Notes under the pieces: generated by a model
The model's input: only the letters and a program-made list of their open reading frames with translations
Told to the model about the DNA's origin: nothing
Database searches by the model: none
Position numbers and translations under genes: made by a program
Part shown: one piece after another, positions 8,124-64,000 of the stretch
How the letters are laid out: every line of letters starts with the position of its first letter
How positions within the stretch are numbered: the first letter of the stretch is position 1
Assembly (NCBI GenBank): GCA_043803815.1
Contig: JAZDJR010000029.1
Span: forward strand, 11,632 to 75,631
Source of the DNA: Candidatus Micrarchaeota archaeon
Lineage (GTDB): Archaea > Iainarchaeota > Iainarchaeia > Iainarchaeales > JAGVWC01
DNA length: 64,000 nt
Direction of reading: 5' to 3'

Positions 8124-8252
8124 GGACCTGTAGCCTAGCCTGGATAGGGCACCTGCCTTCTAAGGCTTTTTCTTCAAAAGAAAAACCCTGGAAAAAGAAC
8201 AGGGAACGTCAAGGCGAGCAGGGGGTCGTGGGTTCAAATCCCACCAGGTCCG
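8124..8252 (+). tRNA. tRNA-Arg(TCT) with 54-nt intron at 37/38 (8163-8216)
   Basis: Acceptor stem ggacctg/caggtcc, anticodon stem cctgc/gcagg, anticodon TCT at 8159-8161, T-arm GGTTCAAATCC. Confidence 0.93.
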
Positions 8253-8313
8253 CTTTATTTTTCCACTAGTGCTGGTGAGCTGGCTGATTAAATTAGGAAA
8301 GCTTTGAAAAAAT

Positions 8314-49825: not shown

Positions 49826-50617
49826 ATGATTTCAAAACAAGGAATCCTGACTTTGGTCCTTTTATTGCTGGTTGCGACTTCCTGCCAGGCGGTCACGATC
49901 CAGGCATCCGACAAAATCGTAACCGGTTCGAACTGGAGCTTTTCCGTAAAGCTAGATTCAACAGACTTGTATTACACCTTAAACGTTTTACTCGACAGCC
50001 AAAAAATCGGTTCATTGTATTCCACAAACCCGCCGACGTTTGTTCCCGACCCGTTTAACGGCTCAATGATTAATTCTTCCCGCTTTGCAAACCAGACTCT
50101 TTTTGTTTCCCTGACCGGACTTTCCGCGGGAAACCATGAACTCCGCGTGGAAACCTTTAATCAGGAAAATGTGTCCCTGCAAAGCCAAACCAAGCCTTTT
50201 TTGGCAATCGAACCCGTGGACACGCAAATCCAAACCTCGATGAATCAAAGCGTTTTGACCCTTCAAACCCAAAACACCGCGCTTGTCCAGTCGATTGAAG
50301 AATTAAAGCAGACCAATGCGGGACTCAACAACCGTTTGGAACAGCAAAACGAATTGCTTGCAGAGTTCCAGCAAAAAATAAAAAACCTCACGAGTTCCTT
50401 GCAGTCATTACAGGACAACCAGTCTGCGGACAAGACCGTTATTCAAAACCTGCAAACCCAATTGGAATCGGTTCTGGCGGAGCAGCAATCCGCAAAAGCA
50501 AATACTGTAACGGGATTTGTTGGACTCAGAAACGCGACGCTCCTCGGAATCGGAGTTTTGGTTGTGATTGCCGTCGGATTTTTTGTTTACCGGCAACGCA
50601 AAAAAAGCGCGTATTAG
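49826..50617 (+). CDS. Secreted coiled-coil protein with C-terminal membrane anchor
   Basis: Signal peptide, coiled coil, TGF + TM + basic tail. Confidence 0.8.
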   Translation: MISKQGILTLVLLLLVATSCQAVTIQASDKIVTGSNWSFSVKLDSTDLYYTLNVLLDSQKIGSLYSTNPPTFVPDPFNGSMINSSRFANQTLFVSLTGLSAGNHELRVETFNQENVSLQSQTKPFLAIEPVDTQIQTSMNQSVLTLQTQNTALVQSIEELKQTNAGLNNRLEQQNELLAEFQQKIKNLTSSLQSLQDNQSADKTVIQNLQTQLESVLAEQQSAKANTVTGFVGLRNATLLGIGVLVVIAVGFFVYRQRKKSAY

Positions 50618-50745
50618 GACTGCAAAAAACACCGCTAATTTTTTGTTCTTTCAAAGAATGACTGCTCCCCGTTCTAAATAGGGAAATATCCGAAGCTTGA
50701 CCTGGAAAATACCTTAAAAAACCGATTCAACCCAATTCTTGCATT

Positions 50746-50798
50746 GCGGAGATGGCTAAACCTCAGCTTTTTGCTTTGGGCAAAAACCTGGGAAAAAG
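50746..50798 (+). repeat. Duplicated tRNA-Ser 5' end fused to a hairpin-repeat copy
   Basis: gcggagatggctaaacct matches 50818-50835 at 17/18, then cagctttttgctttgggcaaaaacctgggaaaaag resembles the tRNA intron. Confidence 0.85.
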
Positions 50799-50817
50799 CA
50801 GCTCTGAAAAATTTGAT

Positions 50818-50956
50818 GCGGAGATGGCTGAACCTGGTTAAGGCGCACGCCTGGAAACTCAGCTTTTTTGCTTTCAGCAAAAAACCTGGGAAAAAATTGT
50901 TTAGCCCGTGAGCGTGTGGGCGAAAGCCCTTGTGGGTTCAAATCCCACTCTCCGCG
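50818..50956 (+). tRNA. tRNA-Ser(GGA) with 54-nt intron (50857-50910)
   Basis: Acceptor gcggaga/tctccgc, anticodon stem cacgc/gcgtg, variable arm gggcgaaagccc, GGTTCAAATCC. Confidence 0.93.
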
Positions 50957-50998
50957 CTTTCCTCAAAATAGTCTTAAAAAAAAGCATTGGTGTTTTGA

Positions 50999-51130
50999 AT
51001 GAATCCCGACTGCCCCTGCCCCAAAACAACCTGCCCAAACCACGGCAACTGCGACAAATGCAAGGCGTATCACCTCAAGGTGGGCGGGTTGTCGTACTGC
51101 AAGAGAAACCCGCAAAGAACGGGTTTGTGA
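50999..51130 (+). CDS. 43-aa Cys/His-rich metal-binding microprotein (not in ORF track)
   Basis: MNPDCPCPKTTCPNHGNCDKCKAYH..YC. Confidence 0.7.
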   Translation: MNPDCPCPKTTCPNHGNCDKCKAYHLKVGGLSYCKRNPQRTGL

Positions 51131-51167
51131 ACAGGCGAATCCTTAAAATGAGAAACCCCCTGTTGAA

Positions 51168-51482
51168 TTGGAAACGCATTTTTGGATGATGATTATGAGT
51201 ACTTTGGATTGGGTTTGCGACCGCGCCCTGGACGTGGACAGTTTTTTGCTCGGACTGGCTATTTTTGACAAAGTGTTCAGGATGGATTTGTCCGCGCCGA
51301 CGATTGAGGGGCGCATGGTGGCGGCTTTCGAGTTCGCGGTCATTATCCTGTTCGTGCAATGGGTCGTTAAAAAATACATTCAAAGCCATGTTCATTACAA
51401 GCGAAAGCTCTGGCAACTCGTAGCTCTCCTCATTTTGGGGGTTGGGCTTTCTTTTCTTACTGTTCTCGAATTTCACGCGTAA
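51168..51482 (+). CDS. Small membrane protein
   Basis: Hydrophobic helices; start codon uncertain. Confidence 0.55.
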   Translation: METHFWMMIMSTLDWVCDRALDVDSFLLGLAIFDKVFRMDLSAPTIEGRMVAAFEFAVIILFVQWVVKKYIQSHVHYKRKLWQLVALLILGVGLSFLTVLEFHA

Positions 51483-51610
51483 ACCAAAGCGTTTTTCCGG
51501 TTTTTTTGGATTGGTGAATTTTTCCTCTTCCGCACCAAAATCATTTTAAAGCTTTAAATGCACGTTTTTAAGACATTTGAAGCACTTTTCATTCGTAAAA
51601 TGGGGTCTTT

Positions 51611-53056
51611 ATGCGCGTTTTAATGCTTAATCCGCCTTTTTTCAAGGGGTTTTCTCGCTCCAGCCGCAGCCCGGGCGTTTCCAAAGGCGGGTGCGTATAT
51701 TACCCGTTATGGCTGGGCGCAGCAACAGGCTGGCTTGAAAAACACGGCCACGAAGTCAAATTATTAGACTGTCCTGTTGAAGAAATTACGACTGAAGATG
51801 TCGCCAAAATTTTGGACGAATGGAAACCCGAACTGGTGGTGTTTGATTCGGTTACCGCGTCCGCGACAAACGATTTTGAAGTGGCCAGGCAATTGCGCTC
51901 CCATTCCAAGGCAAAATTCGTGTTTGTCGGAACCAGCCCCAGCGCTTTGCCAGAAAAAACTCTCAAAGAGTGCGATGCAATCGATTTGGTTACGCAGGCG
52001 GAATACGACAAGCAATTGCTGAACCTGGCCAACAATGTTCCGCTTGAAAAAATAAAAGGAATCAGCTATCGGCTAAAAGACGGCAGCATCAGGCATAATC
52101 CGTCCGAAGAATTATTGACCGGAAAAGAACTCGACGAGTTTCCGTTCATGTCCGAGGTTTTTGCGCGCCACTTAAAAATCAAAAATTATTTTTATCCGTC
52201 GGTTTTGTATCCCGAGACAACCATTGTGACGGGAAGAGGCTGCCCGTTTCACTGCACGTTTTGCGTCTTGCCGCAGGTCATGAACGACCACCAGTACCGC
52301 GCGCGCTCTCCCGAAAGCGTTTTTGCGGAAATGAAATGGATTCACGACAATTTGCCAGAAGTAAAAGACGTCATGATTGAAGACGATACGTTTACCGCGG
52401 ACCGCGAACGCGTTAAAAACGTCTGCCGCCTGATTATCGAAAACGGGTTAAAAATCGCATGGACGGTAAATGCGCGCGCGGATGTCGATTTGGAAACTTT
52501 GCAACTGATGAAGCAAGCCGGCTGCCGGCTCTTGTGCGTGGGATTTGAAAGCGCGGACCAGACCATTTTGAATAATATCAAAAAAGGAACCACTATTCCA
52601 AAAATTGAGCAATTCATGAAAGACACCAAAACCGCGGGTTTGTTGGTTCACGGCTGCTTTATGATTGGAAACAAAGGCGAAACCCGCGAAACCATCCGCA
52701 AAACACTGGATATGGCTATCCGCTTGGAACCCGACACCGTCCAATTTTTTCCCATTATGGTTTATCCCGGAACCGAAGCGTACGAATACGCGGCCAAGCA
52801 AGGCCATTTGACCACCAACAATTTTTCGCATTGGCTGCTGCCCGACGGCACGCACAATTCCATCATTTCAACCCCTGATTTAAGCGCTCAGGATTTGGTG
52901 CGGGAATGCGACCGCAGCCGCGTCAAATTTTACGGCAGGCCCAAATTCATGCTTAAAAAATTCTGGCAGGTTTTGCAGCACCCGTCCGATTTGCCGCGCA
53001 CCATCAAAAGCGGAATCACTTTTTCAAAATATTTTATCAAAGAATTCCGCGGCTGA
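51611..53056 (+). CDS. B12-binding-domain radical SAM enzyme (HpnJ-like)
   Basis: GRGCPFHCTFC (CxxxCxxC), EDDTF, VGFES, YPGT. Confidence 0.92.
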   Translation: MRVLMLNPPFFKGFSRSSRSPGVSKGGCVYYPLWLGAATGWLEKHGHEVKLLDCPVEEITTEDVAKILDEWKPELVVFDSVTASATNDFEVARQLRSHSKAKFVFVGTSPSALPEKTLKECDAIDLVTQAEYDKQLLNLANNVPLEKIKGISYRLKDGSIRHNPSEELLTGKELDEFPFMSEVFARHLKIKNYFYPSVLYPETTIVTGRGCPFHCTFCVLPQVMNDHQYRARSPESVFAEMKWIHDNLPEVKDVMIEDDTFTADRERVKNVCRLIIENGLKIAWTVNARADVDLETLQLMKQAGCRLLCVGFESADQTILNNIKKGTTIPKIEQFMKDTKTAGLLVHGCFMIGNKGETRETIRKTLDMAIRLEPDTVQFFPIMVYPGTEAYEYAAKQGHLTTNNFSHWLLPDGTHNSIISTPDLSAQDLVRECDRSRVKFYGRPKFMLKKFWQVLQHPSDLPRTIKSGITFSKYFIKEFRG

Positions 53057-53097
53057 ACAGCTGAAAACTTTTTTTAGGCCGCTTTAACCGGTTCGAT

Positions 53098-54087
53098 TCA
53101 GGAAGCCGTATGGCAAATGTCATTTCGGCATTCCAGCGGCACAAAACAGTAAGGCAGGTATCCGGCTTTTTGGCAGCAGGGGCCGTTTTGGAATCCGCAA
53201 TCCGCGCGTTTGATGAGTACCTGCGTCATAATCAGGTAATCGTTGACTTCGCTTATTCCGGTTCCCGCTTCGTCGTATTCCCCGTTCAAAATGTTTTGCC
53301 TGTGGCTTGGAGAATTCATCCATTGGCTGACGCATCCTTGCACGATTTGGCCGGTCGTTTCCCAGTCCACTTTTTTCCAGGCGGTTTTGGGAACGGTTTG
53401 GATGCGTTCCTGTTTTTGGTTTAAATATTGGCGAAGATTTTGCAGGGTTTGAGTTTGCGATTCATCCGGCAGAGTCGGCGGCAGTTCGATGATGGGCGGT
53501 TCGACGGCAGGTTCCAGACCTGGATAGGTTTTGTCCTTGGAAAACGGGTGAGCCAGAATGTTTTCCGCGCTGGCCGAAAAATAGTAAATGTTCATCGAAT
53601 GGAGGCGGTCGGAGTGATGAAAGCCGAACGAAAATCCCTCATGTGAAATATACGGATCGGGAAAAACCAGGTTAAAATCTGTAAGGTCCGTGTTTTCCAA
53701 GGCCAAATCGTTGGAATGGCGCCTGGCGACATTGGCAAGGCCCGAATTCCATTTAAGCAGGGATAATTGATTTTGAATGCGTTCCCGGTTAATGGCGTCA
53801 TGCATTAAAAATTCGAGTTCGCTTAGGTTCAAATCTGGTTTTGCAAAAACATTGAAATCGGAAGAATTCAATGTCTGGCTTGGAACCGCCGGAACCGTGT
53901 TCGGCAAGGCATACGTTCCGGATGAAGGGTTTGTTTCGGATGGGTTGGAATATTGATTCGGGTTAGTTGAAAAATTATTAAAAAATTCGGGGCGATATTG
54001 GATTTCAAATGCCAGCAGTCCGACGGCACCGATAAAAGCCAGGATGCCGATGATTCCAAACCAATTCAGATTTTTCATGCGCATCAA
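53098..54087 (-). CDS. Membrane-anchored CAP (SCP) domain protein
   Basis: INRER..L..VARRHS, AENI, WMNSPSHRQNIL. Confidence 0.85.
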   Translation of the reverse strand: MMRMKNLNWFGIIGILAFIGAVGLLAFEIQYRPEFFNNFSTNPNQYSNPSETNPSSGTYALPNTVPAVPSQTLNSSDFNVFAKPDLNLSELEFLMHDAINRERIQNQLSLLKWNSGLANVARRHSNDLALENTDLTDFNLVFPDPYISHEGFSFGFHHSDRLHSMNIYYFSASAENILAHPFSKDKTYPGLEPAVEPPIIELPPTLPDESQTQTLQNLRQYLNQKQERIQTVPKTAWKKVDWETTGQIVQGCVSQWMNSPSHRQNILNGEYDEAGTGISEVNDYLIMTQVLIKRADCGFQNGPCCQKAGYLPYCFVPLECRNDICHTAS

Positions 54088-54160
54088 TCAATCAGTAATG
54101 TGCTATCCTGCTTTTTTATCGTTAACCAACTTTTTATTCAATAACCAAAAAAATCCAAAA

Positions 54161-54610
54161 TTAATCTTCGGCTTTATATTGCCCGCCCGGCGGATAATAC
54201 TCGTTGTATTTTCGAATCGTGGCAAACGCCTCTTCCAATAAGTCATTGCCATGCAGGGCTTTCCAGACGGCATCAAACGCATTTTGGCCCGCAAAAGCCT
54301 GCTTTTTGGCCAAGCCCATTTCATCGGCTATCCGTTCAGAAGTCCAGTTTTCGATTTCATTTAATGGCTTTCCTTCCAGTTCCGAACAAAGAAACGACAG
54401 GCAGGCAATGGTTTGGGGGGACGCGCCGGATACGAATTGGATGAACAGGACCAGATTTTTTTCGGTTTGGCAATACACTTCGATTTTGGCTTCTTTTCCG
54501 TTTTCAATCGGATTAAGTTCCGCATAATGCGTCGGATTTTTAAGCGGCCCCTGATGCATGGGCTGTTTTAGGTGTTTTTCAAAAGCCGAATTGGACTGGT
54601 TTTTGGGCAT
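54161..54610 (-). CDS. IscU/NifU-N-like protein lacking canonical cysteines
   Basis: FEKHLKQPMHQG, IACLSFLCSELEGK, ERIADEMG pattern. Confidence 0.65.
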   Translation of the reverse strand: MPKNQSNSAFEKHLKQPMHQGPLKNPTHYAELNPIENGKEAKIEVYCQTEKNLVLFIQFVSGASPQTIACLSFLCSELEGKPLNEIENWTSERIADEMGLAKKQAFAGQNAFDAVWKALHGNDLLEEAFATIRKYNEYYPPGGQYKAED

Positions 54611-54663
54611 GAATGGAGAAAACTGCGAACGCTTTAAAAAAAGGGGTTTTCTTTGTTGATTAC

Positions 54664-55623
54664 ATGGCTAAAAAATGGAGGTCGGAACTGGACTATATCG
54701 GCAATACCCCGCTCCAAAACGTGGATGGCATTTTGGTCAAACTGGAATACCTGAATCCGTCGGGTTCCATCAAGGACCGCATCGCCAAATATATCGTTGA
54801 AAAAGCGGAACAAAAAAAAGAGCTTAAAAAAGGATATTCGATTGTAGAAGCGACTTCCGGAAATACGGGAATCGCGTTTTCCATGGTTGCCGCGGCCAAA
54901 GGATACAATTGCACGATTGTCCTGCCCAAAGGCCTAAGCGTCGAGCGCCAAGAGCTGATTTTGGCGTACGGCTCCAAAATAATTTTTGTCCGCAAAAACT
55001 GCGTCAAATGCGCGGTTGAAAAAACCCGCGAAATCGCCCGAAAAAACAAAAATGTTTTTTTGCCAAAACAGTTTGAAAACCCGTGGAACGCCGAAGAAAA
55101 CGAAAAAATACTCGGAAAAGAAATTTTAAGGCAATTTGCGGAACAATTCCAAAAAAATAAAAAAAAATCCAGTGAATCGATTGATGCCGTTGTGGCGGGA
55201 GTCGGGACCGGCGGAACCCTAATCGGCGTCGGAAAAGCGGTTCGAAAAAAATTTCCCCGCGTCCAAATTATCGCGGTCGAGCCCGCGGAATGCCCGCTGC
55301 TTAGTGAAAACCGGTACGGCCGTCACCGCATTTTCGGCCTGCACAAGGGCTACACCTGCAAAGCGCACGGAATCGAAGGAATCGGGGACGGGTTCATTCC
55401 CAAAATCGTGCAGGAAAACCGGAACCTAATCGACGAAGTGATTGCGGTTAAAACAGCGGACGCGGTCCAAACCGCCCGGCTGCTTGCCAAAAAAGGATTT
55501 TTTGTCGGCCCGAGCTCGGGAGCCAACTTTTGGGCCGCCCAAAAAGCAAGAAAGAAATTCCAAAACGTGCTGACTTTTTTTTGCGACCGGGGAGAACGCT
55601 ACCTGAGCGAAAAACTGTTTTGA
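54664..55623 (+). CDS. Cysteine synthase-family PLP enzyme
   Basis: IGNTPL, NPSGSIKDR, EATSGNTG, GVGTGGT, IEGIG, GPSSGAN, DRGERYLS. Confidence 0.92.
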   Translation: MAKKWRSELDYIGNTPLQNVDGILVKLEYLNPSGSIKDRIAKYIVEKAEQKKELKKGYSIVEATSGNTGIAFSMVAAAKGYNCTIVLPKGLSVERQELILAYGSKIIFVRKNCVKCAVEKTREIARKNKNVFLPKQFENPWNAEENEKILGKEILRQFAEQFQKNKKKSSESIDAVVAGVGTGGTLIGVGKAVRKKFPRVQIIAVEPAECPLLSENRYGRHRIFGLHKGYTCKAHGIEGIGDGFIPKIVQENRNLIDEVIAVKTADAVQTARLLAKKGFFVGPSSGANFWAAQKARKKFQNVLTFFCDRGERYLSEKLF

Positions 55624-55678
55624 CCCGATTCGCTTGTCCGCGCCAAAAATGCCAAAACCGATTTTGTTTTCAAAGCGG

Positions 55679-55924
55679 TTAAACCAGTTTTTTTCCTGTG
55701 GCGTCGACCAGATGAATGACGTTAACCGGGCAGCTTTTGGCGGCTTCCACATTCTTGGGTTTTTGGCTGTCGGAAATGCCGCGTTCTTCGCTTCCATCGG
55801 GGTTTTCCTTGGAATCCTTGACGTGGCTTTTGTCGCCTTGCATTTCCCAAAATTCGGGGGCAACCGCAGCGCAGGCTCCGCAGCCGATGCAATTGGGCTT
55901 GTCAAACTTTATTTTATATGGCAT
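55679..55924 (-). CDS. Ferredoxin
   Basis: CIGCGAC..AP and AAKSCPVNVI. Confidence 0.9.
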   Translation of the reverse strand: MPYKIKFDKPNCIGCGACAAVAPEFWEMQGDKSHVKDSKENPDGSEERGISDSQKPKNVEAAKSCPVNVIHLVDATGKKLV

Positions 55925-55961
55925 ATTTTTTTCCTTTTTTCCTGAAAAAGATTCCTTTTTC

Positions 55962-56876
55962 TTATTTATCGCTTTTTTGGTTCGCCGGACTTGCAGCCGG
56001 AATTGTTTTTTGCCGCAACCGCTCGTAATTCTCGTCGGCCTTTTTTTGGATTTGGATTATCATTTCCGGCGTCAAATGCGAAAAGCGCTTTTGGCCGTTT
56101 AAATAATCCGAAACCGGCTGTCCGCTTTTCGGGTCAAAGTTCAGTTTGAAATTTCCGTTTTCGATTTCAAACAAAAACCACATGCGCGACTGAACCGCGG
56201 CTTTGGCGATTTGCATCGAGCGGCTTCCGTCAAAGCCCGCTCCGAGGCAGCACGGCGCATGAATCACAATAAAGCGGGCTCCTGTCATAGCTTGGGCTTT
56301 TTTTAATTTGAAACGCAAATCCGCAGGATACGCGACCGAAGCGCTTGCCGAGTATGCAATGTTGTGTGCGGCGGCAATTTCCGCAATCGGCTTGCGCTGT
56401 TTTTCGTTTCCATTATGAACAGAACCTGCTTGGGACGTGGTGGTAACCGCCCCAAATGGGGTTGCGCCGCTTTTTTGGACTCCGGTATTCGCGTATTGCT
56501 CGTTGTCATAGCAAATGTACAGGACATCGTCGTTGCGGTCAAACATTCCAGATAACGCCGCAAAACCGATGTCATAGGTCGAACCGTCTCCCGCAATGCA
56601 GACCACGGTCGTGTGGTCGTTTCCCTTGGCTCGCAAGGCGGTACTGACTCCGCTTGCAACCGCGGGAACGTTTTCAAACAAAGTGTGAATATACGGAACG
56701 CGCCAGGCGCTTTGGGGAAACTGCGTGGACGTGATTTCCATGCAACCTGTGGCATTCACGATGATAATGTCGTTTCCCAAAGCATCCAGAATCTGGATTA
56801 ACGCGTTGGACGGCGCGCAACCGGGACAGCCCGCGTGGCCGGGAGCATATAAGTGCATGTCGCTTTGCTGGCTCAT
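55962..56876 (-). CDS. porB: Pyruvate:ferredoxin oxidoreductase beta subunit
   Basis: GHAGCPGC, ATGCMEI, AGDGSTYDIG, DNEQYANTG. Confidence 0.93.
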   Translation of the reverse strand: MSQQSDMHLYAPGHAGCPGCAPSNALIQILDALGNDIIIVNATGCMEITSTQFPQSAWRVPYIHTLFENVPAVASGVSTALRAKGNDHTTVVCIAGDGSTYDIGFAALSGMFDRNDDVLYICYDNEQYANTGVQKSGATPFGAVTTTSQAGSVHNGNEKQRKPIAEIAAAHNIAYSASASVAYPADLRFKLKKAQAMTGARFIVIHAPCCLGAGFDGSRSMQIAKAAVQSRMWFLFEIENGNFKLNFDPKSGQPVSDYLNGQKRFSHLTPEMIIQIQKKADENYERLRQKTIPAASPANQKSDK

Positions 56877-58021
56877 TTTTTTGCCTCGGTTTTCTTGCCA
56901 ATCCATTCGGAGATTGGTTCTTTGGTTTTGAGTTTGTCAAACAATACTGCAATGTCTTTGCGCTTGAGATTTCTTCCGCCGAGGCAACCATAAAAACTGG
57001 AAACAATTGTCCCTGTGCCTTGCAATGCTTCCGCAACTTCAACGTACAACGGCGCTTGGGCTCCGAGTGATAACGCGCGGTCAATCACTCCGACTTTTTT
57101 TCCTTTCAAAACTCGCGCAAGTTCTTCGCTTGGAAACGGGCGATAGCATCGCAAGTGCAAACACCCGACTTTTTTTCCTTTTTTGCGGAGTTCTTCAACG
57201 GTTGCCTTGGCATTATCCATGGCGCTTCCAAGTCCAATCAAAACGATTTTCGCGTCCTTGACATGGAATTCCTCGAACAATCCGTAGGAACGCTTGAATT
57301 GTTTTCCGAATAGTTTTCCAACTTCGAAAATCGTTTTTTTGGATGCAATCAAATCGTTGTGCAGGTCTTCGCGGAATTCCTGGTAATATTGCGGAGCGGT
57401 ATAGGCTCCCAATGTAATTGGGTTTTCAGGGTCGAGTTTAAAGGCGGGCTTAAACGCCGGCAAAAACGATTGGGTTTCTTTTTGGCTGGGAACATCCACT
57501 TGTCCGACCGCGTGCGTCAAATAATGGCCGTCCAGGCACACCATTACGGGCAGATTGGTTTTTTCCGCGATTTCAAAGGCTTGAATGGTGTTGTCCACGG
57601 CTTCTTGATTGTTTTTGCAGTATAATTGTATCCAGCCGGTGTCTCGCTGGCTGATGGAATCCTGTTCGTCGTTCCAAATGGATAATGGCGCGGAAACCGC
57701 GCGGTTAGCAACCGCCATGACAACGGGCAATCTCAGTCCCGCAACCGCAAACAGCGCTTCGTGCATTAATAAGAGTCCCTGCGAGGAAGTCGCGGTAAAG
57801 CTTCGGGCACCTGCCGCGCTTGCGCCCATGACCGCGCTGATGGCTGAAAATTCGGATTCAACTGCGATAAAATTCTTGATTTCGCCGTTGGCAAAAAACC
57901 GGTCCATTTCTTCCACAATCTGCGTGGCAGGAGTAATGGGATAGCAGGCCACGACTTCGGGCCGGCAGTTTTTCGCGGCTTCGGCAACCGCTTCGTTTCC
58001 ACTAATCGTTTTGACGACCAT
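56873..58021 (-). CDS. porA: Pyruvate:ferredoxin oxidoreductase alpha subunit
   Basis: SGNEAVA, YPITP, ESE, ATSSQG, NRA. Confidence 0.94.
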   Translation of the reverse strand: MVVKTISGNEAVAEAAKNCRPEVVACYPITPATQIVEEMDRFFANGEIKNFIAVESEFSAISAVMGASAAGARSFTATSSQGLLLMHEALFAVAGLRLPVVMAVANRAVSAPLSIWNDEQDSISQRDTGWIQLYCKNNQEAVDNTIQAFEIAEKTNLPVMVCLDGHYLTHAVGQVDVPSQKETQSFLPAFKPAFKLDPENPITLGAYTAPQYYQEFREDLHNDLIASKKTIFEVGKLFGKQFKRSYGLFEEFHVKDAKIVLIGLGSAMDNAKATVEELRKKGKKVGCLHLRCYRPFPSEELARVLKGKKVGVIDRALSLGAQAPLYVEVAEALQGTGTIVSSFYGCLGGRNLKRKDIAVLFDKLKTKEPISEWIGKKTEAKK

Positions 58022-58023
58022 TT

Positions 58024-58236
58024 TCAGTTCCCCTTTTTTGCAACCAGCGAACCGAGCAGGTAGCCAAATAACGCAAAAAGTGCAAAAGAAATAACTAAAA
58101 TAGATAATGCCTTTAGCGCGTAATCGGAAGGCGGTCCTAATAGCATTAACAATTCGTTCAATATTCCAAATATTCCTCCGACAACCAGTCCGTATAACGC
58201 GAATTTTTTATTAGTTTCATTAAGTTTGAAATTCAT
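58024..58236 (-). CDS. Small two-TM membrane protein inside the por operon
   Basis: 70 aa; 2- and 4-bp gaps to neighbours. Confidence 0.7.
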   Translation of the reverse strand: MNFKLNETNKKFALYGLVVGGIFGILNELLMLLGPPSDYALKALSILVISFALFALFGYLLGSLVAKKGN

Positions 58237-58240
58237 CTTT

Positions 58241-58495
58241 TCACCTTTTTTCTGCTTCTCGTTCCATCTTGATGCATTTTACGGGGCATTCGACCGCGCA
58301 AATCCCGCAGCCCTTGCAATAATCCAAATCAATAACCGGAATTTCTTTTGGGGTTCCCATGATTCCTTCGGGGCAAAAATTTTGGCAGATTCCGCATTTA
58401 ATGCATTCTTTAGCATCCACTTTAGGCTTGTCAACACTCCATTTTCCGGTCTTGTTGACAACGGTTGTTCCCGGCTTTGCAATCGCGAATTTCAT
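58241..58495 (-). CDS. porD: Pyruvate:ferredoxin oxidoreductase delta subunit
   Basis: KTGKW..KP, CIKCGICQNFCP, DLDYCKGCGICAVECP. Confidence 0.93.
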   Translation of the reverse strand: MKFAIAKPGTTVVNKTGKWSVDKPKVDAKECIKCGICQNFCPEGIMGTPKEIPVIDLDYCKGCGICAVECPVKCIKMEREAEKR

Positions 58496-59037
58496 TTTTT
58501 TTCACCGCTTGTTTTTTCAAAGCATTCCTGAACGGCTAAAATGTTTTGGGACGCGATTGTTGAGGGAAAGCGGCTTGAAATCGCTTTTTTAATGCTCTCG
58601 ATTTTTACGATTCCGGTTATTTTGCACAACGCCCCGAGCATTACGGTGTTGGTAATCGGTTTTTTTAGATATTTAACCGCGATTTGAGTTCCATCCACGA
58701 TGAAAACAAAATTGCTCTGCAGATTCAATTCTTTTTTAGGCTGATTTGAGTTCACAATCAGTTTTCCGGTTTTTTTCAGCCCAGCTTCGACTGAAACTTC
58801 CTGCAAAACCGACGGCTCGGCAACTACTATGATATCCGGCTCGTTTATTTCCTCATGAATCGCAATCGGCTTGGAATCGATTCGGCAATAACTGGTAACC
58901 GGCGGCCCGCGTTTTTCCGAGCCGAAAAAAGGCATGGCCTGGCTAAATTTTCCTTCCAAAGCCGCGGCTTCGGCCAAAAGTTCGGCAGCGGTAACGATTC
59001 CCTGTCCCGCCCGTCCATGAAAACGAATTTCAATCAT
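58492..59037 (-). CDS. porC: Pyruvate:ferredoxin oxidoreductase gamma subunit
   Basis: MIEIRFHGRAGQG, FGSEKRG.PV, NTVMLGA; start at ATG 59037. Confidence 0.93.
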   Translation of the reverse strand: MIEIRFHGRAGQGIVTAAELLAEAAALEGKFSQAMPFFGSEKRGPPVTSYCRIDSKPIAIHEEINEPDIIVVAEPSVLQEVSVEAGLKKTGKLIVNSNQPKKELNLQSNFVFIVDGTQIAVKYLKKPITNTVMLGALCKITGIVKIESIKKAISSRFPSTIASQNILAVQECFEKTSGEKK

Positions 59038-59058
59038 TGCATTTCCTCTTGGAACTTT

Positions 59059-59170
59059 CTTTTTCTCGAGCTTTTTTGCACGACGCAAAAAAGGCTGCTG
59101 GAAGCATTTTTTTTCCCAGGCTTTTTTCCGCAGAAAAAAGGCTGCGGCCATGAAAACGAATTTCTAGCAT
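59059..59170 (-). repeat. Two hairpin-repeat copies preceded by a duplicated porC 5' end
   Basis: 59144-59170 reads MLEIRFHGR, 23/27 nt identical to 59011-59037; repeats at 59107-59144 and 59059-59097. Confidence 0.85.
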
Positions 59171-59252
59171 AATTTTATTTAATCTTAAAAATTTTACAGT
59201 GCAATTCTCACTGCAATTCTATGACCATTGCCAAAAGCACTATTTAAACATA

Positions 59253-59266
59253 TTGACAATTGTCAA
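59253..59266. promoter_or_regulatory. Perfect 14-bp palindrome upstream of the por operon
   Basis: TTGACAATTGTCAA next to a TTTAAATA TATA-like box on the minus strand. Confidence 0.55.
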
Positions 59267-59303
59267 AGGAAATGACGGCGATTAACGTAAACCTGTTTTT
59301 GGG

Positions 59304-60503
59304 TTAATTTCCGAACCGGATGGCGTCTACGGGGTCCAATTCGGCTGCGGTTTTGGCGGGCAAAATGCCGGACAATAATCCGACCAGCATGGAAAAGCCG
59401 ACGGCAAATAAAATCGTGGCCAAAGATACCGTGACGGGCAATTCGAATCCTGCCAAAGTTGCTATGATAGATGCCAATTTTGCCAATCCGATTCCAAGAA
59501 CGGTTCCGATGACTCCGCCGACTAATCCCAAAAGGATTGCTTCGGTAATGAAAATGGAAAGAATTCTGGAATCGGTTGCGCCAATCGCTTTCATGATTCC
59601 GATTTCTTTGGTGCGCTCCGACACCGACATAAACATGGTGTTCATGATTCCTACCGCGCCGACCAAAAGCGAAATCAGGGCAATGCCGACCAAAACGACC
59701 TGAACAAGGCCGATGACGCTTCCCGCGGTTTCGCCGACCTGCTTTGCGCTTAACACCTGAAAATCTTCCTTGCTATGGCTGCGTTTTAAAATGCGCGAAA
59801 TGCGGTCTTTGGCGTCATCCAATCCGACGCCGGGAAATAATTTGACAAAAACCCGGTTGGGCAATACTTTTTGGCCGGTAACGGTTTCCAATGTTCCGAT
59901 GTTCATGATAACCGCTTCATCAAACATGCCGCCGACAAACGTGTTCGCGGATTCTTTGGTGGTTCCGACCACCTTGAGTTTTTTTCCGTTGACTCCAAGC
60001 GAACTGGTCACATGAATAGGCCGCTTGAATTTTTCTTCGGAAAGTTTCGGTCCGATCATAATGCCGGTTTTATCCTGACTGTTCAAATAGCGCCCTTCTC
60101 CGAGAGAAACGATTCCCGAACCGCCCAGTTTGAGCATCTTGTCGGCATCCAGACCGATAGCCATAATGGTTTTTTTTTCGCCCTTAAATTCCACAAAAAC
60201 CGTTTGGATAGCCAGTTCCGCGGCAAAGTCGACTCCGCGGACGCTTTGAATCGTTGCAACATCGCCGCTTTGAAGCTTGACAAAAGCGGAATCCGTAAAG
60301 TTTTTTCCCGGCAAAACAATCAAGGTGTCGGTTCCGAGCGATTCAAACTGGCTTTGCACCGAACTGGTCAATCCTTCGCCAAGCGAAATCAGCGCAATGA
60401 TGGCGGTAATTCCCAAAACAATTCCCAACACCGTCAGGTTGCTGCGAAATCCCTGCCCCCGAAGATTTCGAACCGCGGTTTTGATGGTTTCCAAATCAAA
60501 CAT
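59304..60503 (-). CDS. MacB/FtsX-family ABC transporter permease
   Basis: RSNLTVLGIVLG, GIMNTMFMSVSERTKEIGIMKAIGA, LDPVDAIR. Confidence 0.92.
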   Translation of the reverse strand: MFDLETIKTAVRNLRGQGFRSNLTVLGIVLGITAIIALISLGEGLTSSVQSQFESLGTDTLIVLPGKNFTDSAFVKLQSGDVATIQSVRGVDFAAELAIQTVFVEFKGEKKTIMAIGLDADKMLKLGGSGIVSLGEGRYLNSQDKTGIMIGPKLSEEKFKRPIHVTSSLGVNGKKLKVVGTTKESANTFVGGMFDEAVIMNIGTLETVTGQKVLPNRVFVKLFPGVGLDDAKDRISRILKRSHSKEDFQVLSAKQVGETAGSVIGLVQVVLVGIALISLLVGAVGIMNTMFMSVSERTKEIGIMKAIGATDSRILSIFITEAILLGLVGGVIGTVLGIGLAKLASIIATLAGFELPVTVSLATILFAVGFSMLVGLLSGILPAKTAAELDPVDAIRFGN

Positions 60504-60507
60504 ACAA

Positions 60508-61773
60508 TCACTCGTACCGAATCGCTTCAACGGGGTCCAATCCGATTGCTTTTTCCGCGGGAGCAACTCCCGACACGACCCCTAAAATAAACGAAAACAA
60601 CACCGCTCCTATCAATAAAACCGGATTAAGGACAAACGCCAGTTCAAATCCCGCATTGGCCGCCAATCGGGTTACAATCCAGGCCAAAATAACGCCGAAC
60701 CCCGTTCCAATCGCCCCTCCAATGGCTCCGACAATGCCGGCTTCCGCCAAAAAAATGCTGCGAATCAATTCGTCGGTCGCGCCGATGGCTTTCATCGTCC
60801 CGATTTCGCGGGTCCTTTCGGTAACCGCCATAAACATGGTATTCATGATGCCGATTCCGCCCACCAAAAGCGCAATCGCCGTAATCGCGACCACAAAAAT
60901 CTGAATCACGCCCAAGACCTGCACCGCGCTGGTCAGAAGGCCTTCCGTGGTAAAAACCGTAAAATTCTTTTCGCCGTGATCGCGTTCCAAATCCTGCTCG
61001 ATTTTTCTGGCAACCTCGCTTACATGCTCTTTTCCCGTCACTTTAACCGCAAATTCCGCCGGGTCTTTTTCACCCAAAAAATCCTTGACGACATTCTGGC
61101 TGGTGTAACCCATATTGAAAAAACCGAACGTGCCAAAACCCATGTCGGATTGCTTGGAAATGCCCACAATCTTGAATTTTTTCCCGTTGATTTCAACGCT
61201 TTGCCGCAATTTTAAATCGCTTGAAAATGCGTCCGTCAAAAAATTGTCATACACCACAAGCGCGTACTGGTCGTTGTCCGTCAAAAATCGCCCCTGGGAC
61301 AGGTCCAAAAACCCGATTTCTTCCATGTACTCGAAATCCTCGGGCAGTAACCCCATAACCATCAGGCTTATTTCCTCGTTTCCTTTTTTGGCAATCACGC
61401 TGGTTTCATAAAAAGGAATGACTTTTTCAACAAACGGAATGCGTTCGATGATTTTCTGGTCGTTTTCGGAAAGCTTGGAAAACATGGTTGCCGACATGGT
61501 TCCGCCGGGCTCGACAAAAATATTGTTCAGTCCGAGCCCCTCAAAGGATTGCTGTATCGAGGCATTCAATCCTTCACCCACCATAAATAAAGTGACAATC
61601 GCCGCAATGCCGATGACGATTCCTAACAAGGTCAGATTGCGGCGCAAGGCCTGGTTTTCAAGGTTTCGAAAAGCAACCGCCGCGATTTCCGGATTGGTAA
61701 TCACATGGAAAAAAGTCCGCAACACCAAAAAAATCAGGCGAAACGGATATGACACCTTGGAAACCAAAGACAC
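60508..61773 (-). CDS. MacB/FtsX-family ABC transporter permease (tandem paralogue)
   Basis: LTLLGIVIG, GIMNTMFMAVTERTREIG, LDPVEAIRYE; start uncertain. Confidence 0.92.
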   Translation of the reverse strand: MSLVSKVSYPFRLIFLVLRTFFHVITNPEIAAVAFRNLENQALRRNLTLLGIVIGIAAIVTLFMVGEGLNASIQQSFEGLGLNNIFVEPGGTMSATMFSKLSENDQKIIERIPFVEKVIPFYETSVIAKKGNEEISLMVMGLLPEDFEYMEEIGFLDLSQGRFLTDNDQYALVVYDNFLTDAFSSDLKLRQSVEINGKKFKIVGISKQSDMGFGTFGFFNMGYTSQNVVKDFLGEKDPAEFAVKVTGKEHVSEVARKIEQDLERDHGEKNFTVFTTEGLLTSAVQVLGVIQIFVVAITAIALLVGGIGIMNTMFMAVTERTREIGTMKAIGATDELIRSIFLAEAGIVGAIGGAIGTGFGVILAWIVTRLAANAGFELAFVLNPVLLIGAVLFSFILGVVSGVAPAEKAIGLDPVEAIRYE

Positions 61774-62076
61774 GAATTATCCCTCTGTTGCTTGAAAATA
61801 ACACCGCAAACTATTAAGGAATAGCGTTTCATTGGCAACCATATTTTTATGGAAAAAAACGCGGATAAAAAGCAAAGCAAAAAATTTCACCACTGTTTCA
61901 AATCTGGACTGAAAAGGCTTCAGAATAACCGTCCAAAAACGGATAACCGAACAGTTTTTCGGACAATCCCAGCCCCCTTTACCCGGCAAAGGCCAGCACT
62001 CCAGAATATAGGTGTTACGATTTTTGTATCGCTTTTGGCATAAAGTTATACTGTTTTAGTATCACTTTAGAAAGGT

Positions 62077-62146
62077 TTATTTGCTTTCCAAGAAAACTTT
62101 GTTTCGCGGCTTTTTGCATTACGGCAAAAACCCGGGAAAAACTTCG
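62077..62146. repeat. Recoded duplicate of the aminopeptidase 3' end plus hairpin repeat
   Basis: 62077-62100 encodes KVFLESK* on the minus strand, as does 62147-62170; repeat cggctttttgcattacggcaaaaacccgggaaaaac at 62107-62142. Confidence 0.85.
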
Positions 62147-63568
62147 CTATTTACTCTCCAAAAAAACCTTATATGCTTTTTTGGCCTGGTACAAATCGAC
62201 TTTGGAAACGAGTTCGAACGGCGAATGCATGGCCAGTACGGGCGGCCCGATGTCCACGATTTCGCAGCCGTATTTGGCAAAGTATTTGGCGACCGTTCCG
62301 CCCCCGCCTTCGTCGACTTTTCCAAGTTCGCCGGTTTGCCAGACCACATTATTGTCGTTGAACAGTTTTCGGATAAAAGCCATGAACTCCGCATTGGCGT
62401 CGGAGCCGTCGTATTTTCCCCCGACACCCGTGGATTTGGAAACCGAAACGCCAAAACCCGTCACGTTGGAATTTTGGATGTCGAAAAATTCCAGGTATTT
62501 GGGGTCAATGGAAGCGTCCACGTCCGCGGAAATCGCGTATGATTCCGCCAGTACATCCATCGCCGATTTGGAGCATTTGGTTTTTTTTGCGAGTTCTTCG
62601 ATTACGCGCTCCAAAAAAAACGATTCCGAACCCGTGGCACCCGTGCTTCCAACTTCTTCCTTGTCCATCCAAAGAACCATAATCGTGTGTTCGGGAATTC
62701 CCTTGACATCCAAAATCGCGGATAACGCGGCAAACGAACCGGCACGGTCATCGTGGCCATACGCGCCGATCAGCCCCTCGTCAAAGCCCACGTCGCGCGC
62801 CTTGACGGACGGAACCAATTGCAGTTCCGCGGAAAAAAAATCTTCTTCAATCATGCCGTATTTTTCGTTCAATAATTTGAGCAGGTTCAGCTTGATTTTT
62901 TCCGTCGCGTCTTTTTCCGCAAACGGAATGGACGCGGCTACGGCGTCCAATTGTTCGCCGGTCACGGCATCCGCTATTTTTTTTTCGGCAAAAACCTTGT
63001 AGCCCACGTGCGGCAACAGGTCCGGAATGCAAAAAACGGGTTCCCCGCTTTTTTCGCCCAGATTGATTTCGAGTTTTTTTCCGTTTTTCAAAAATACGAC
63101 GCCGTGCAAAGCCAAAGGCTCGTTGACCCAATGATATTTTTTGATTCCGCCGTAATAATGCGTATTAAGCATGACCAATCCGCTGTTTTCGTACAGCGGA
63201 TTGATTTTGAGGTCCAAATGGCACGCATCAACGTGGCTAATCACCAGGCGCATCCCGTTTTCCAAGGCGTGCTTTCCCAGTACGATAAAACCGATGTTTT
63301 TGCCTTTGTTTTGCACCCAAAAATTCGAGCCGGCTTTTAGATTCGACTGTTCCATTCCAATAAATCCTTTTTTTTCGGCTTGGCGTTTTCCGAATTCCAC
63401 GATTTCGCGTTCGGTTTTGTAATTCGACAAAAATTCCTTGTATTCGCCGGCGAATTCAAAAACGCGGTCGTGTTCGCCTTTTTCAAGTTTTTCCCACGCG
63501 CTTTCGCTTTTTAACGCGAGTTTTTCCTTTAAGATTTCGGATTCTTTTTTTTCTTTTTTTTCAGCCAA
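62147..63568 (-). CDS. M18-family aminopeptidase
   Basis: SHVD, HYYGGIK, HDDR, DKEEVGS, SADV, MHSPFE; TTG start at 63568 is inferred. Confidence 0.92.
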   Translation of the reverse strand: MAEKKEKKESEILKEKLALKSESAWEKLEKGEHDRVFEFAGEYKEFLSNYKTEREIVEFGKRQAEKKGFIGMEQSNLKAGSNFWVQNKGKNIGFIVLGKHALENGMRLVISHVDACHLDLKINPLYENSGLVMLNTHYYGGIKKYHWVNEPLALHGVVFLKNGKKLEINLGEKSGEPVFCIPDLLPHVGYKVFAEKKIADAVTGEQLDAVAASIPFAEKDATEKIKLNLLKLLNEKYGMIEEDFFSAELQLVPSVKARDVGFDEGLIGAYGHDDRAGSFAALSAILDVKGIPEHTIMVLWMDKEEVGSTGATGSESFFLERVIEELAKKTKCSKSAMDVLAESYAISADVDASIDPKYLEFFDIQNSNVTGFGVSVSKSTGVGGKYDGSDANAEFMAFIRKLFNDNNVVWQTGELGKVDEGGGGTVAKYFAKYGCEIVDIGPPVLAMHSPFELVSKVDLYQAKKAYKVFLESK

Positions 63569-63913
63569 ACCAACCAACCCCAAAAAACGCCTTTTTTGAA
63601 CAATCAAAAACCACCGGTTTTTGACGTAGCGAATTCCCAATTATTCATCTTTCAAAACAGGGGATTCGCTTGATTAAAAAGACCAAAGCTTTTTTAAAAA
63701 CCAAACCCCTATTTTAAGCGAAAAACAGGTGAAAAAATGCGTTTTAGCGCCGAAAAAAAGGATTGGAGCCAGTTCAAAGGCAATGCCTTCCCAAAGGCGC
63801 AAGCGGAATCGGAGTGCGATTATCGGTTGAATATTTAAAATCGATTTAGGGATAAAAATTGCTGTGTTGCATGATTCTGAAGTTTTTCGGGTTTTCTGAA
63901 AAACCCGGTGCAG

Positions 63914-64000
63914 TTATGCGTTTTCTCCGTATCTTTTGACTTTTTGGTACGCCCAGAACTTGATGGCTGCCTCTTGCGTCATGCCTAACTCACTAGTGGC
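63914..64000 (-). CDS. Possible C-terminal fragment of a gene running off the window
   Basis: Open frame ..ATSELGMTQEAAIKFWAYQKVKRYGENA*. Confidence 0.4.
   Translation of the reverse strand, partial: ATSELGMTQEAAIKFWAYQKVKRYGENA

Follow-up and report, generated by a model that had tools for sequence, protein, structure and literature searches.

In Escherichia coli, the prophage e14, an element of about 15 kb with its own integrase, is located at the 3′ end of icd, and so is phage 21. In the passages of PMC13626634 that deal with this locus, icd extends into e14, a C-terminal pseudogene (icdC) lies at the far end of the prophage, and excision gives a set of synonymous changes. Here we describe a related arrangement in a 64,000-nt stretch of an archaeal genome (Candidatus Micrarchaeota; the whole stretch is hereafter called the window), where the last eight codons of an M18 aminopeptidase gene, stop codon included, stand twice on the two sides of a 46-nt imperfect hairpin and differ at silent positions. 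As in the passages on e14 and icd, an element in the end of a conserved gene would supply the replacement end, the native end would be left as a stub, and the differences are mainly synonymous; furthermore, the single-copy end found in a relative resembles the chimeric form left by excision, or an empty site. Unlike e14, a hairpin of 46 nt without a gene separates the two ends here, and the targets are many, including 5′ ends and tRNA genes. Judged by analogy, the element would work in the manner of the e14/icd type, and we do not file it as a member of that type because its 46-nt spacer has no open reading frame (ORF) and no recombinase was linked to it.

Archaeal elements of the SSV or pNOB8 type are kilobases long, encode an integrase, and leave partial duplications of tRNA genes (attL/attR). 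Similarly, 17–22 nt of a tRNA end are found on both sides of inserts of the family described below, but these inserts are 40–130 nt long and non-coding. Rickettsia palindromic elements and other palindromes resembling miniature inverted-repeat transposable elements (MITEs) insert in frame and add residues; the present hairpin is likewise a short multi-copy palindrome tolerated at genes, whereas the protein is unchanged and the gene end is duplicated and recoded. Folded single-strand recombination sites, such as integron attC and the attP of CTX phage, recombine with one fixed partner site. They share with our hairpin an imperfect stem and a conserved mismatch beside it.

With regard to introns, a 2014 review (PMC4090602, summarising Fujishima et al. 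2010) describes tRNA introns of the Thermoproteales that transpose by an as yet unknown mechanism, thought to operate at the DNA level. Near-identical introns in different isotypes, the trait given in that summary, are also present here (Ser, Arg, Leu and one more). Unlike the introns as summarised there, the module described here is also found outside tRNAs, at protein-gene ends flanked by recoded duplicates (PMC4090602). Short direct repeats were present near the borders of all 213 introns examined, five of them archaeal-type, in the passages of PMC11782384 on intron borders. How introns arrive remains open after several routes were tested, as put in the text of a 2026 Asgard preprint (10.64898/2026.10.13.758758). 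The literature searched, in which the supplementary tables of that preprint were not covered, contained no description of hairpin mini-elements with recoded gene-end duplicates.

Two recoded ends of the aminopeptidase gene

The window is G000:C29:11632-75631, where G000 is the genome studied (1.08 Mb in 36 contigs, a metagenome-type assembly), so that a window coordinate equals the contig coordinate minus 11631; C-numbers denote contigs of this genome and other G-numbers denote other genomes of the order. As shown in Table 1, the aminopeptidase gene is intact and is followed by the spacer and the second gene end. Both ends translate as KVFLESK-stop and share 19 of their 24 bases. All five mismatches are at codon position 3 and silent (5 of the 8 third positions differ, and 0 of the other 16), and five random mismatches among 24 positions would all fall on the eight third positions with P = 0.0013. 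An earlier reading made from the letters alone, hereafter the sequence-only reading, had claimed the doubled KVFLESK-stop, the 46-bp spacer and the five silent differences, all of which were borne out, as was the presence of TTCGC on both sides of the spacer (plus strand, 62103-62107 and 62142-62146). Note that a short direct repeat hugging the hairpin, such as this TTCGC, was rejected as a trait of the hairpin family, since it was inconsistent among other copies when compared by eye.

That reading had also proposed a comparison of orthologues. In four orthologues from relatives (50–67% amino acid identity), the gene stops at the matching place, as …F[FL]E[STY]K-stop or …FLR-stop, and neither a hairpin nor a second gene end was found behind these four, indicating that copy 1 is the true gene end. 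Copy 2 is not in the frame of the gene; because the 46 nt of the spacer are not a multiple of three, stop-codon read-through or frameshifting into copy 2 was ruled out as a use for it. A search of metagenome contigs for close relatives gave 12 loci, the best at 60% amino acid identity and none useful.

A single-copy form of the locus was obtained from a groundwater DNA run (X1; a small share, 0.08), the one DNA run given by a look-up of public runs, which listed no RNA run; X1 contains a relative and not the genome itself. Among its contigs compared with positions 50000-64000, one of 837 nt and depth 6 covers 62157-62950, and its 794 aligned nt include 53 differences, or ~93% identity. Past 62157, it has 20 letters that fit neither side (GTGTTTTTTGTTACTTGCTT, plus strand), followed by 23 nt that match the window up to 59299. 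On the gene's strand, these 20 letters finish the KVFLESK peptide and supply a stop codon, and the relative has one gene end, no hairpin, no second copy and no permease genes. At the five sites at which the copies differ, the relative equals copy 1 at sites 1 and 2 and copy 2 at sites 3 to 5, and the third base of its seventh codon is unlike both copies. By eye, 9 of the first 10 positions of the 20 extra letters match the corresponding half of copy 2. Furthermore, four differences from the relative fall within the final 12 nt of copy 1, far above the gene-wide rate of 53 per 794 nt (P = 0.006), compared with one in the final 12 nt of copy 2.

Because the single end of the relative equals the first half of copy 1 joined to the second half of copy 2, each copy appears to be a chimera: copy 1 would be a resident left part with a foreign right part, and copy 2 a foreign left part with a resident right part. 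On the letters of the three ends, the joining of the copies within their common TTGGA would be the signature of a reciprocal (Campbell-type) event. The sequence-only reading had ascribed a coding history to both copies, and this is supported by the recurrence of the silent bias at other hairpin-flanked gene ends of the genome, by the single end in the relative and by the excess of differences between copy 1 and the relative. Its suggestion that an incoming gene end replaced the resident one is upheld with respect to the incoming piece, but not with respect to a clean resident and a clean incoming copy, as each copy is such a chimera.

The explanation that we favor, which in our judgment stands about evenly between right and wrong, is that a 70-nt non-coding insert lies within the last eight codons, that it brought its own synonymous gene end, and that the two copies mark its left and right junctions. 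The insert would consist of the hairpin, as a member of a mobile family, and flanks carrying its own, synonymously different version of these eight codons. Reciprocal exchange in the common TTGGA would then connect the resident KVFL codons with the insert-borne ESK-stop, giving copy 1 and keeping the gene intact, and the insert-borne KVFL and the displaced resident ESK-stop would end up behind the hairpin as copy 2. For such an exchange, the incoming piece would be circular or permuted, its donor would belong to a more diverged lineage, and the recombinase would act in trans.

A hairpin family at gene and tRNA ends

The spacer, read on the gene's strand, consists of a T-run, CCCGGG, a second T-run, a loop, an A-run and GCCG, and contains no ORF. 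The predicted fold of 126 nt has an energy of −30.8 kcal/mol (z −2.4), and 4 of 200 shuffles fold as well. Fuzzy searching, followed by a covariance model (R1) built from 16 seed copies (alignment A1), detected 24 copies of the hairpin in this genome at E<0.01, and the mismatch flanking the T-run is kept across the copies in the alignment. An Rfam 15 scan of 58900-62300 gave one chance-level match, to a microRNA model (E 0.33), and the family matches no Rfam family. A sigma-70 and terminator scan, a method unsuited to archaea, gave no prediction at the hairpin.

The contexts of the copies were as follows. Four of the 24 lie inside canonical tRNA introns, those of tRNAs Ser, Arg, Leu and one more; the genome is archaeal, and 21 of its 36 tRNAs were called with introns by aragorn. 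Eleven hairpins stand at nine gene or tRNA ends and are flanked by duplicates of that end, namely the 5′ ends of tRNA-Trp, tRNA-Ser and tRNA-His, the 3′ ends of tRNA-Arg(GCG) and tRNA-Pro(GGG), the aminopeptidase end, the starts of the E2 acyltransferase gene and of the gene for the gamma subunit of pyruvate-ferredoxin oxidoreductase (PORgamma, with two hairpins), and the end of a gene on contig C36. Three adjoin the 3′ end of a tRNA and have no duplicate, and the remaining copies are intergenic. In all nine duplicated ends, the T-run/CCCAGG side of the hairpin is directed toward the working gene and the GCTG side toward the stub (two-sided P 0.004). The stub is 0–8 nt away from the GCTG side (46 nt for the second PORgamma hairpin), the gap between the working end and the hairpin varies from 1 to 75 nt, and the repeats are about 11 to 30 nt long. 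The geometry in the introns is alike, the distance from the GCTG side to one splice junction being 1–4 nt and a variable tail reaching to the other. Under a stricter filter, the hairpin family also turned up in 14 of 40 other genomes of the order, among them all three from the same taxonomic family, again in tRNA introns and with flanking duplicates; matches of R1 within introns were found in G002 and G024.

The silent bias was tallied genome-wide, as the sequence-only reading had proposed. A frame-blind scan of 1020 ORF-called genes matched the final 24 nt of each against the 300 nt behind that gene, the null being obtained by permuting the downstream regions among genes. Three genes reached a downstream repeat of 19/24, compared with 0.25 expected per genome-equivalent. 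In two of them, the aminopeptidase gene and the FttA gene (G000:C18:97413), each pair of copies closes with stop codons and shows five mismatches, every one at a third position; the hairpin at the FttA end is a shorter related one, beyond the reach of R1. A Pfam scan showed that an FttA/aCPSF1-type termination factor is encoded in this genome. The third, the C36 gene, has an identical repeat of 15 nt, and its non-silent mismatches fall outside the repeat, in the hairpin. The counterpart scan of 5049 candidate gene starts gave two matches at the threshold of 22/27 or better (0.3 expected), of which one is PORgamma (23/27, with three of its four mismatches at third positions) and the other is a tRNA-Arg 3′ duplicate under a spurious ORF. 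For the three hairpin-flanked protein genes (aminopeptidase, FttA and PORgamma), 13 of 14 mismatches are thus at third positions (binomial P 6e-6). With the weaker fourth case, the E2 acyltransferase start (MAVEFRFP against MADEFKFP, with three silent and two replacement codons), the total is 17 of 21.

These numbers bear on the notion that the repeat is a chance resemblance or an assembly artefact, for instance two strain variants of the gene end placed in tandem. The assembly is a 36-contig one of metagenome type, and the whole genome contains ~200 local repeats of 19/24, both of which fit this notion. However, three gene-end repeats were found where 0.25 were expected, the aminopeptidase repeat keeps the register of the stop codon and differs at silent sites only (P as given above), and mis-joining at an assembly bubble would not place a family hairpin between the variants. 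In addition, the architecture recurs on contigs C14, C18, C23, C29 and C36 and in the assemblies G001, G003 and G027, which makes a strain-chimeric assembly unlikely. We regard an artefact or chance as very improbable.

The same data were considered in the light of staggered-cut transposition, in which a MITE-like hairpin would duplicate a target of 15–30 nt, the copies being identical at first and diverging later. The identical duplicates (17–22 nt at tRNA ends and 15 nt at C36) fit such a mechanism, the repeat lengths vary by locus as they do in nick-and-fill mechanisms, and the family is multi-copy and patchy, occurring in 15 of 41 genomes with its own included. On the other hand, decay of a free copy should affect every codon position, whereas third positions account for nearly all the differences; the end in the relative is a mosaic of the two copies and not equal to one of them; and the duplicated stretch is a gene end, with fixed polarity, in 9 of 9 cases. 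Nor were the fixed-length identical target duplications of a MITE found, the repeats differing in length and their differences lying at silent sites. The only long non-genic duplication, a 38-nt flanking repeat at C23:18594, was dropped as a gene-end duplicate because it belongs to a 41-nt tandem array that predates the insertion; the array (G000:C23:18526-18720) has three units, with the family hairpin between units 1 and 2. On balance, we think transposition of this type unlikely.

An element acting at the RNA level was also considered. The 70 nt would then be an archaeal-type intron, or be taken out of some of the transcripts, the unspliced and spliced messages would encode the same protein, and selection would keep both copies. 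This is consistent with the hairpin forming the core of four canonical tRNA introns with matching geometry and with the single-copy end of the relative, which is the predicted spliced product. An offset-constrained scan further gave a formally complete bulge-helix-bulge candidate at both the aminopeptidase and PORgamma. However, these candidates consist of A-U and G-U pairs alone in low-complexity sequence, and the scan is blunt, finding the full motif in 9 of the 21 aragorn introns (14 of 21 when relaxed). The minimum-energy fold lacks the bulge-helix-bulge motif, and the direct repeats cannot pair together. Moreover, neither message would allow translation of the left half of copy 2, and yet this half shows silent changes only. 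An RNA-level origin therefore seems to us quite unlikely.

Some further observations concern family hairpins in other settings. Three of them adjoin tRNA 3′ ends by the GCTG side, at 1–3 nt and without a duplicate, and their polarity is opposite to that of the duplicated cases. A composite element of ~90 nt, in which the family hairpin is interrupted by a second palindrome (GGGCCCATTC...GAATCGGG), is present at G000:C8:31100-31190 and G000:C18:38405-38497, and behind one of these copies stand 20 nt that duplicate the 3′ end of a tRNA. Directly behind tRNA-Leu(CAA), within G000:C25:27990-28170, lies a 27-nt 3′ fragment of a different tRNA whose T-arm is kept by paired changes. This fragment (C25:28034) was not counted as a family case, as it stems from a different tRNA and lacks a family hairpin; it may be the scar of an ordinary integration.

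The permease block and other features of the window

Behind copy 2, a 2.8-kb block follows that is absent from the X1 relative, in which almost nothing separates the aminopeptidase gene from the upstream region of PORgamma. The order aminopeptidase, then PORgamma region, is found in G002 and the X1 relative, and these permeases stand beside the aminopeptidase gene in 0 of 16 loci of relatives. The 21-mer at 62060-62080, which contains the stop codon of copy 2, is 100% identical in eight genomes of other families, and in each of them two palindromes of the AAGTGATAC...GTATCACTT type come after it (62042-62080 is the corresponding region here). To the left of the 21-mer, inspection by eye showed an apparent divergent gene start in most of the eight genomes and an aminopeptidase-like end in none of them. 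The 21-mer with its palindromes has the look of a promoter/operator, strongly conserved, that serves a transporter cassette, and so high an identity across families suggests transfer of the cassette or a very constrained repressor site.

This arrangement raises the question of whether the duplicate is a by-product of acquiring the block, in which case copy 2 would be the truncated end of a donor's aminopeptidase gene fronting the permeases, and the hairpin would be a resident terminator. In agreement with this, the hairpin, copy 2 and the block are all missing from the relative (joint 59299->62157), and the stop codon of copy 2 belongs to the 21-mer heading such blocks in the eight other genomes. 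However, arrival of copy 2 with the block is weakened by the 0 of 16 loci with adjacent permeases and by the lack of an aminopeptidase-like end at the 21-mer in those eight genomes. It would also leave unexplained the odd last four codons of copy 1, the mosaic, and the eight other hairpin-flanked duplicates, which have no such block. We consider this origin distinctly unlikely; the permease block was probably inserted separately, immediately behind the former stop codon.

Other cases lie within the window as well. The PORgamma start is doubled, the stub (59170-59144) reading MLEIRFHGR and the real start (59037-59011) MIEIRFHGR, and two family hairpins (59107-59148 and 59057-59101) are located between them. 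A 46-aa ORF begins at the stub, spans both hairpins and terminates two codons inside the real start, which has its own GAGG motif 7 nt before it. Stubs at E2 and C36 likewise stop at or beside the real start, and stubs stopping in this way may reflect translational coupling. Besides its duplicated 5′ end, tRNA-Ser(GGA) carries a further family hairpin (50856-50898) in its canonical intron.

Table 1. Coordinates of the features discussed (window positions unless a contig is given)
Feature	Position	Strand	Basis or remark
M18 aminopeptidase gene, intact, 497 aa	62147..63640	minus	ORF; Pfam PF02127 (Peptidase_M18) E 1.2e-89, profile positions 1-431 of 432
Copy 1: last 7 codons + TAG, functional, AAGGTTTTTTTGGAGAGTAAATAG	62170..62147	minus	first ~14 nt (62170-62157) resident-like, last 10 nt (62156-62147) putatively insert-borne
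46-nt spacer, imperfect hairpin of the genome-wide T-run family	62146..62101	minus	predicted fold; R1 match G000:C29:73734-73775 (window 62103-62144), E 2.8e-7
Copy 2: non-functional duplicate KVFLESK-stop, AAAGTTTTCTTGGAAAGCAAATAA	62100..62077	minus	first ~14 nt putatively insert-borne, last 10 nt putatively the displaced resident end
Putative insert, 70 nt relative to the single-copy form	62087..62156	minus	from the relative's empty site; register ambiguous within the common TTGGA
Block absent from the X1 relative: promoter/operator region and two MacB/FtsX-type permease genes (60508-61773, 59304-60566)	59300..62076	minus	joint 59299->62157; Pfam
PORgamma start, doubled, first 9 codons, 133 nt apart	59011..59170	minus	Pfam POR
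tRNA-Ser(GGA) 5′ end case	50740..50957	plus	19-nt stub 50740-50763, family hairpin 50760-50800, intact tRNA-Ser 50818-50957
tRNA-Arg(TCT), canonical 54-nt intron around family hairpin 8159-8199	8124..8253	plus	bulge-helix-bulge at aragorn boundaries
tRNA-abutting hairpins (His, Ala, Ala)	C14:52121-52164, C4:56620-56662, C29:7359-7398		these hairpins would put a T-run right behind the tRNA

Proposed reciprocal integration and a possible link to tRNA introns

Several points weigh against reciprocal integration of a 70-nt insert. The chimeric pattern comes from one depth-6 contig of one run, with 23 nt on the far side of the joint, and the state of the relative at sites 1 and 2 is taken from the alignment reaching 62157, not from its letters. 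The common core at the aminopeptidase gene is only 5 nt (TTGGA), compared with 17 nt in the FttA and PORgamma cases, and a double-stranded circle of 70 bp is physically awkward as an intermediate. Neither an integrase, a recombinase nor any other enzyme was connected with the element or its spacer, and a viral contig collection gave 0 exact matches to the hairpin motif. As for the donor, BLAST of 62060-62200 against 196 genomes of the order, own genome included, found among the other 195 no donor with the insert-borne codons; the matches were to the hairpin only, to the G003 orthologue and to the 21-mer, and matches to the copy 2 region in G134, G061, G161 and G122 were set aside as chance in AT-rich sequence, not gene ends. 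Finally, two of the five differing codons in the E2 case are replacements, and for the tRNA-end and C36 duplicates, which are identical, a plain target duplication fits equally well.

Given that the same module is found in tRNA introns, we further considered that the hairpin module is a mobile form of archaeal tRNA introns, a tentative proposal that we hold to be rather unlikely. A non-coding unit, possibly via a small circular nucleic acid, would integrate by exchange with a short copy of the target that it carries. Landing in the anticodon loop of a tRNA, it would be an intron, and landing at a gene end, it would leave a recoded duplicate. Since the carried copy would be exchanged with the target on integration, the host gene would survive whether or not the insert is spliced.

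For annotators of DPANN genomes, the short pseudo-ends and stub ORFs seen next to gene ends would be footprints of such an element and not decayed genes. The footprint at gene ends is that expected of reciprocal integration that spares the host gene by means of a recoded replacement end, and since one locus has a relative with the empty site, the event at the DNA level is directly testable. How archaeal tRNA introns spread is an open question, and in this genome the same hairpin module stands both in working introns and at the ends of genes and tRNAs. If the mobile-intron proposal is true, it would provide a concrete route for intron gain in archaea.

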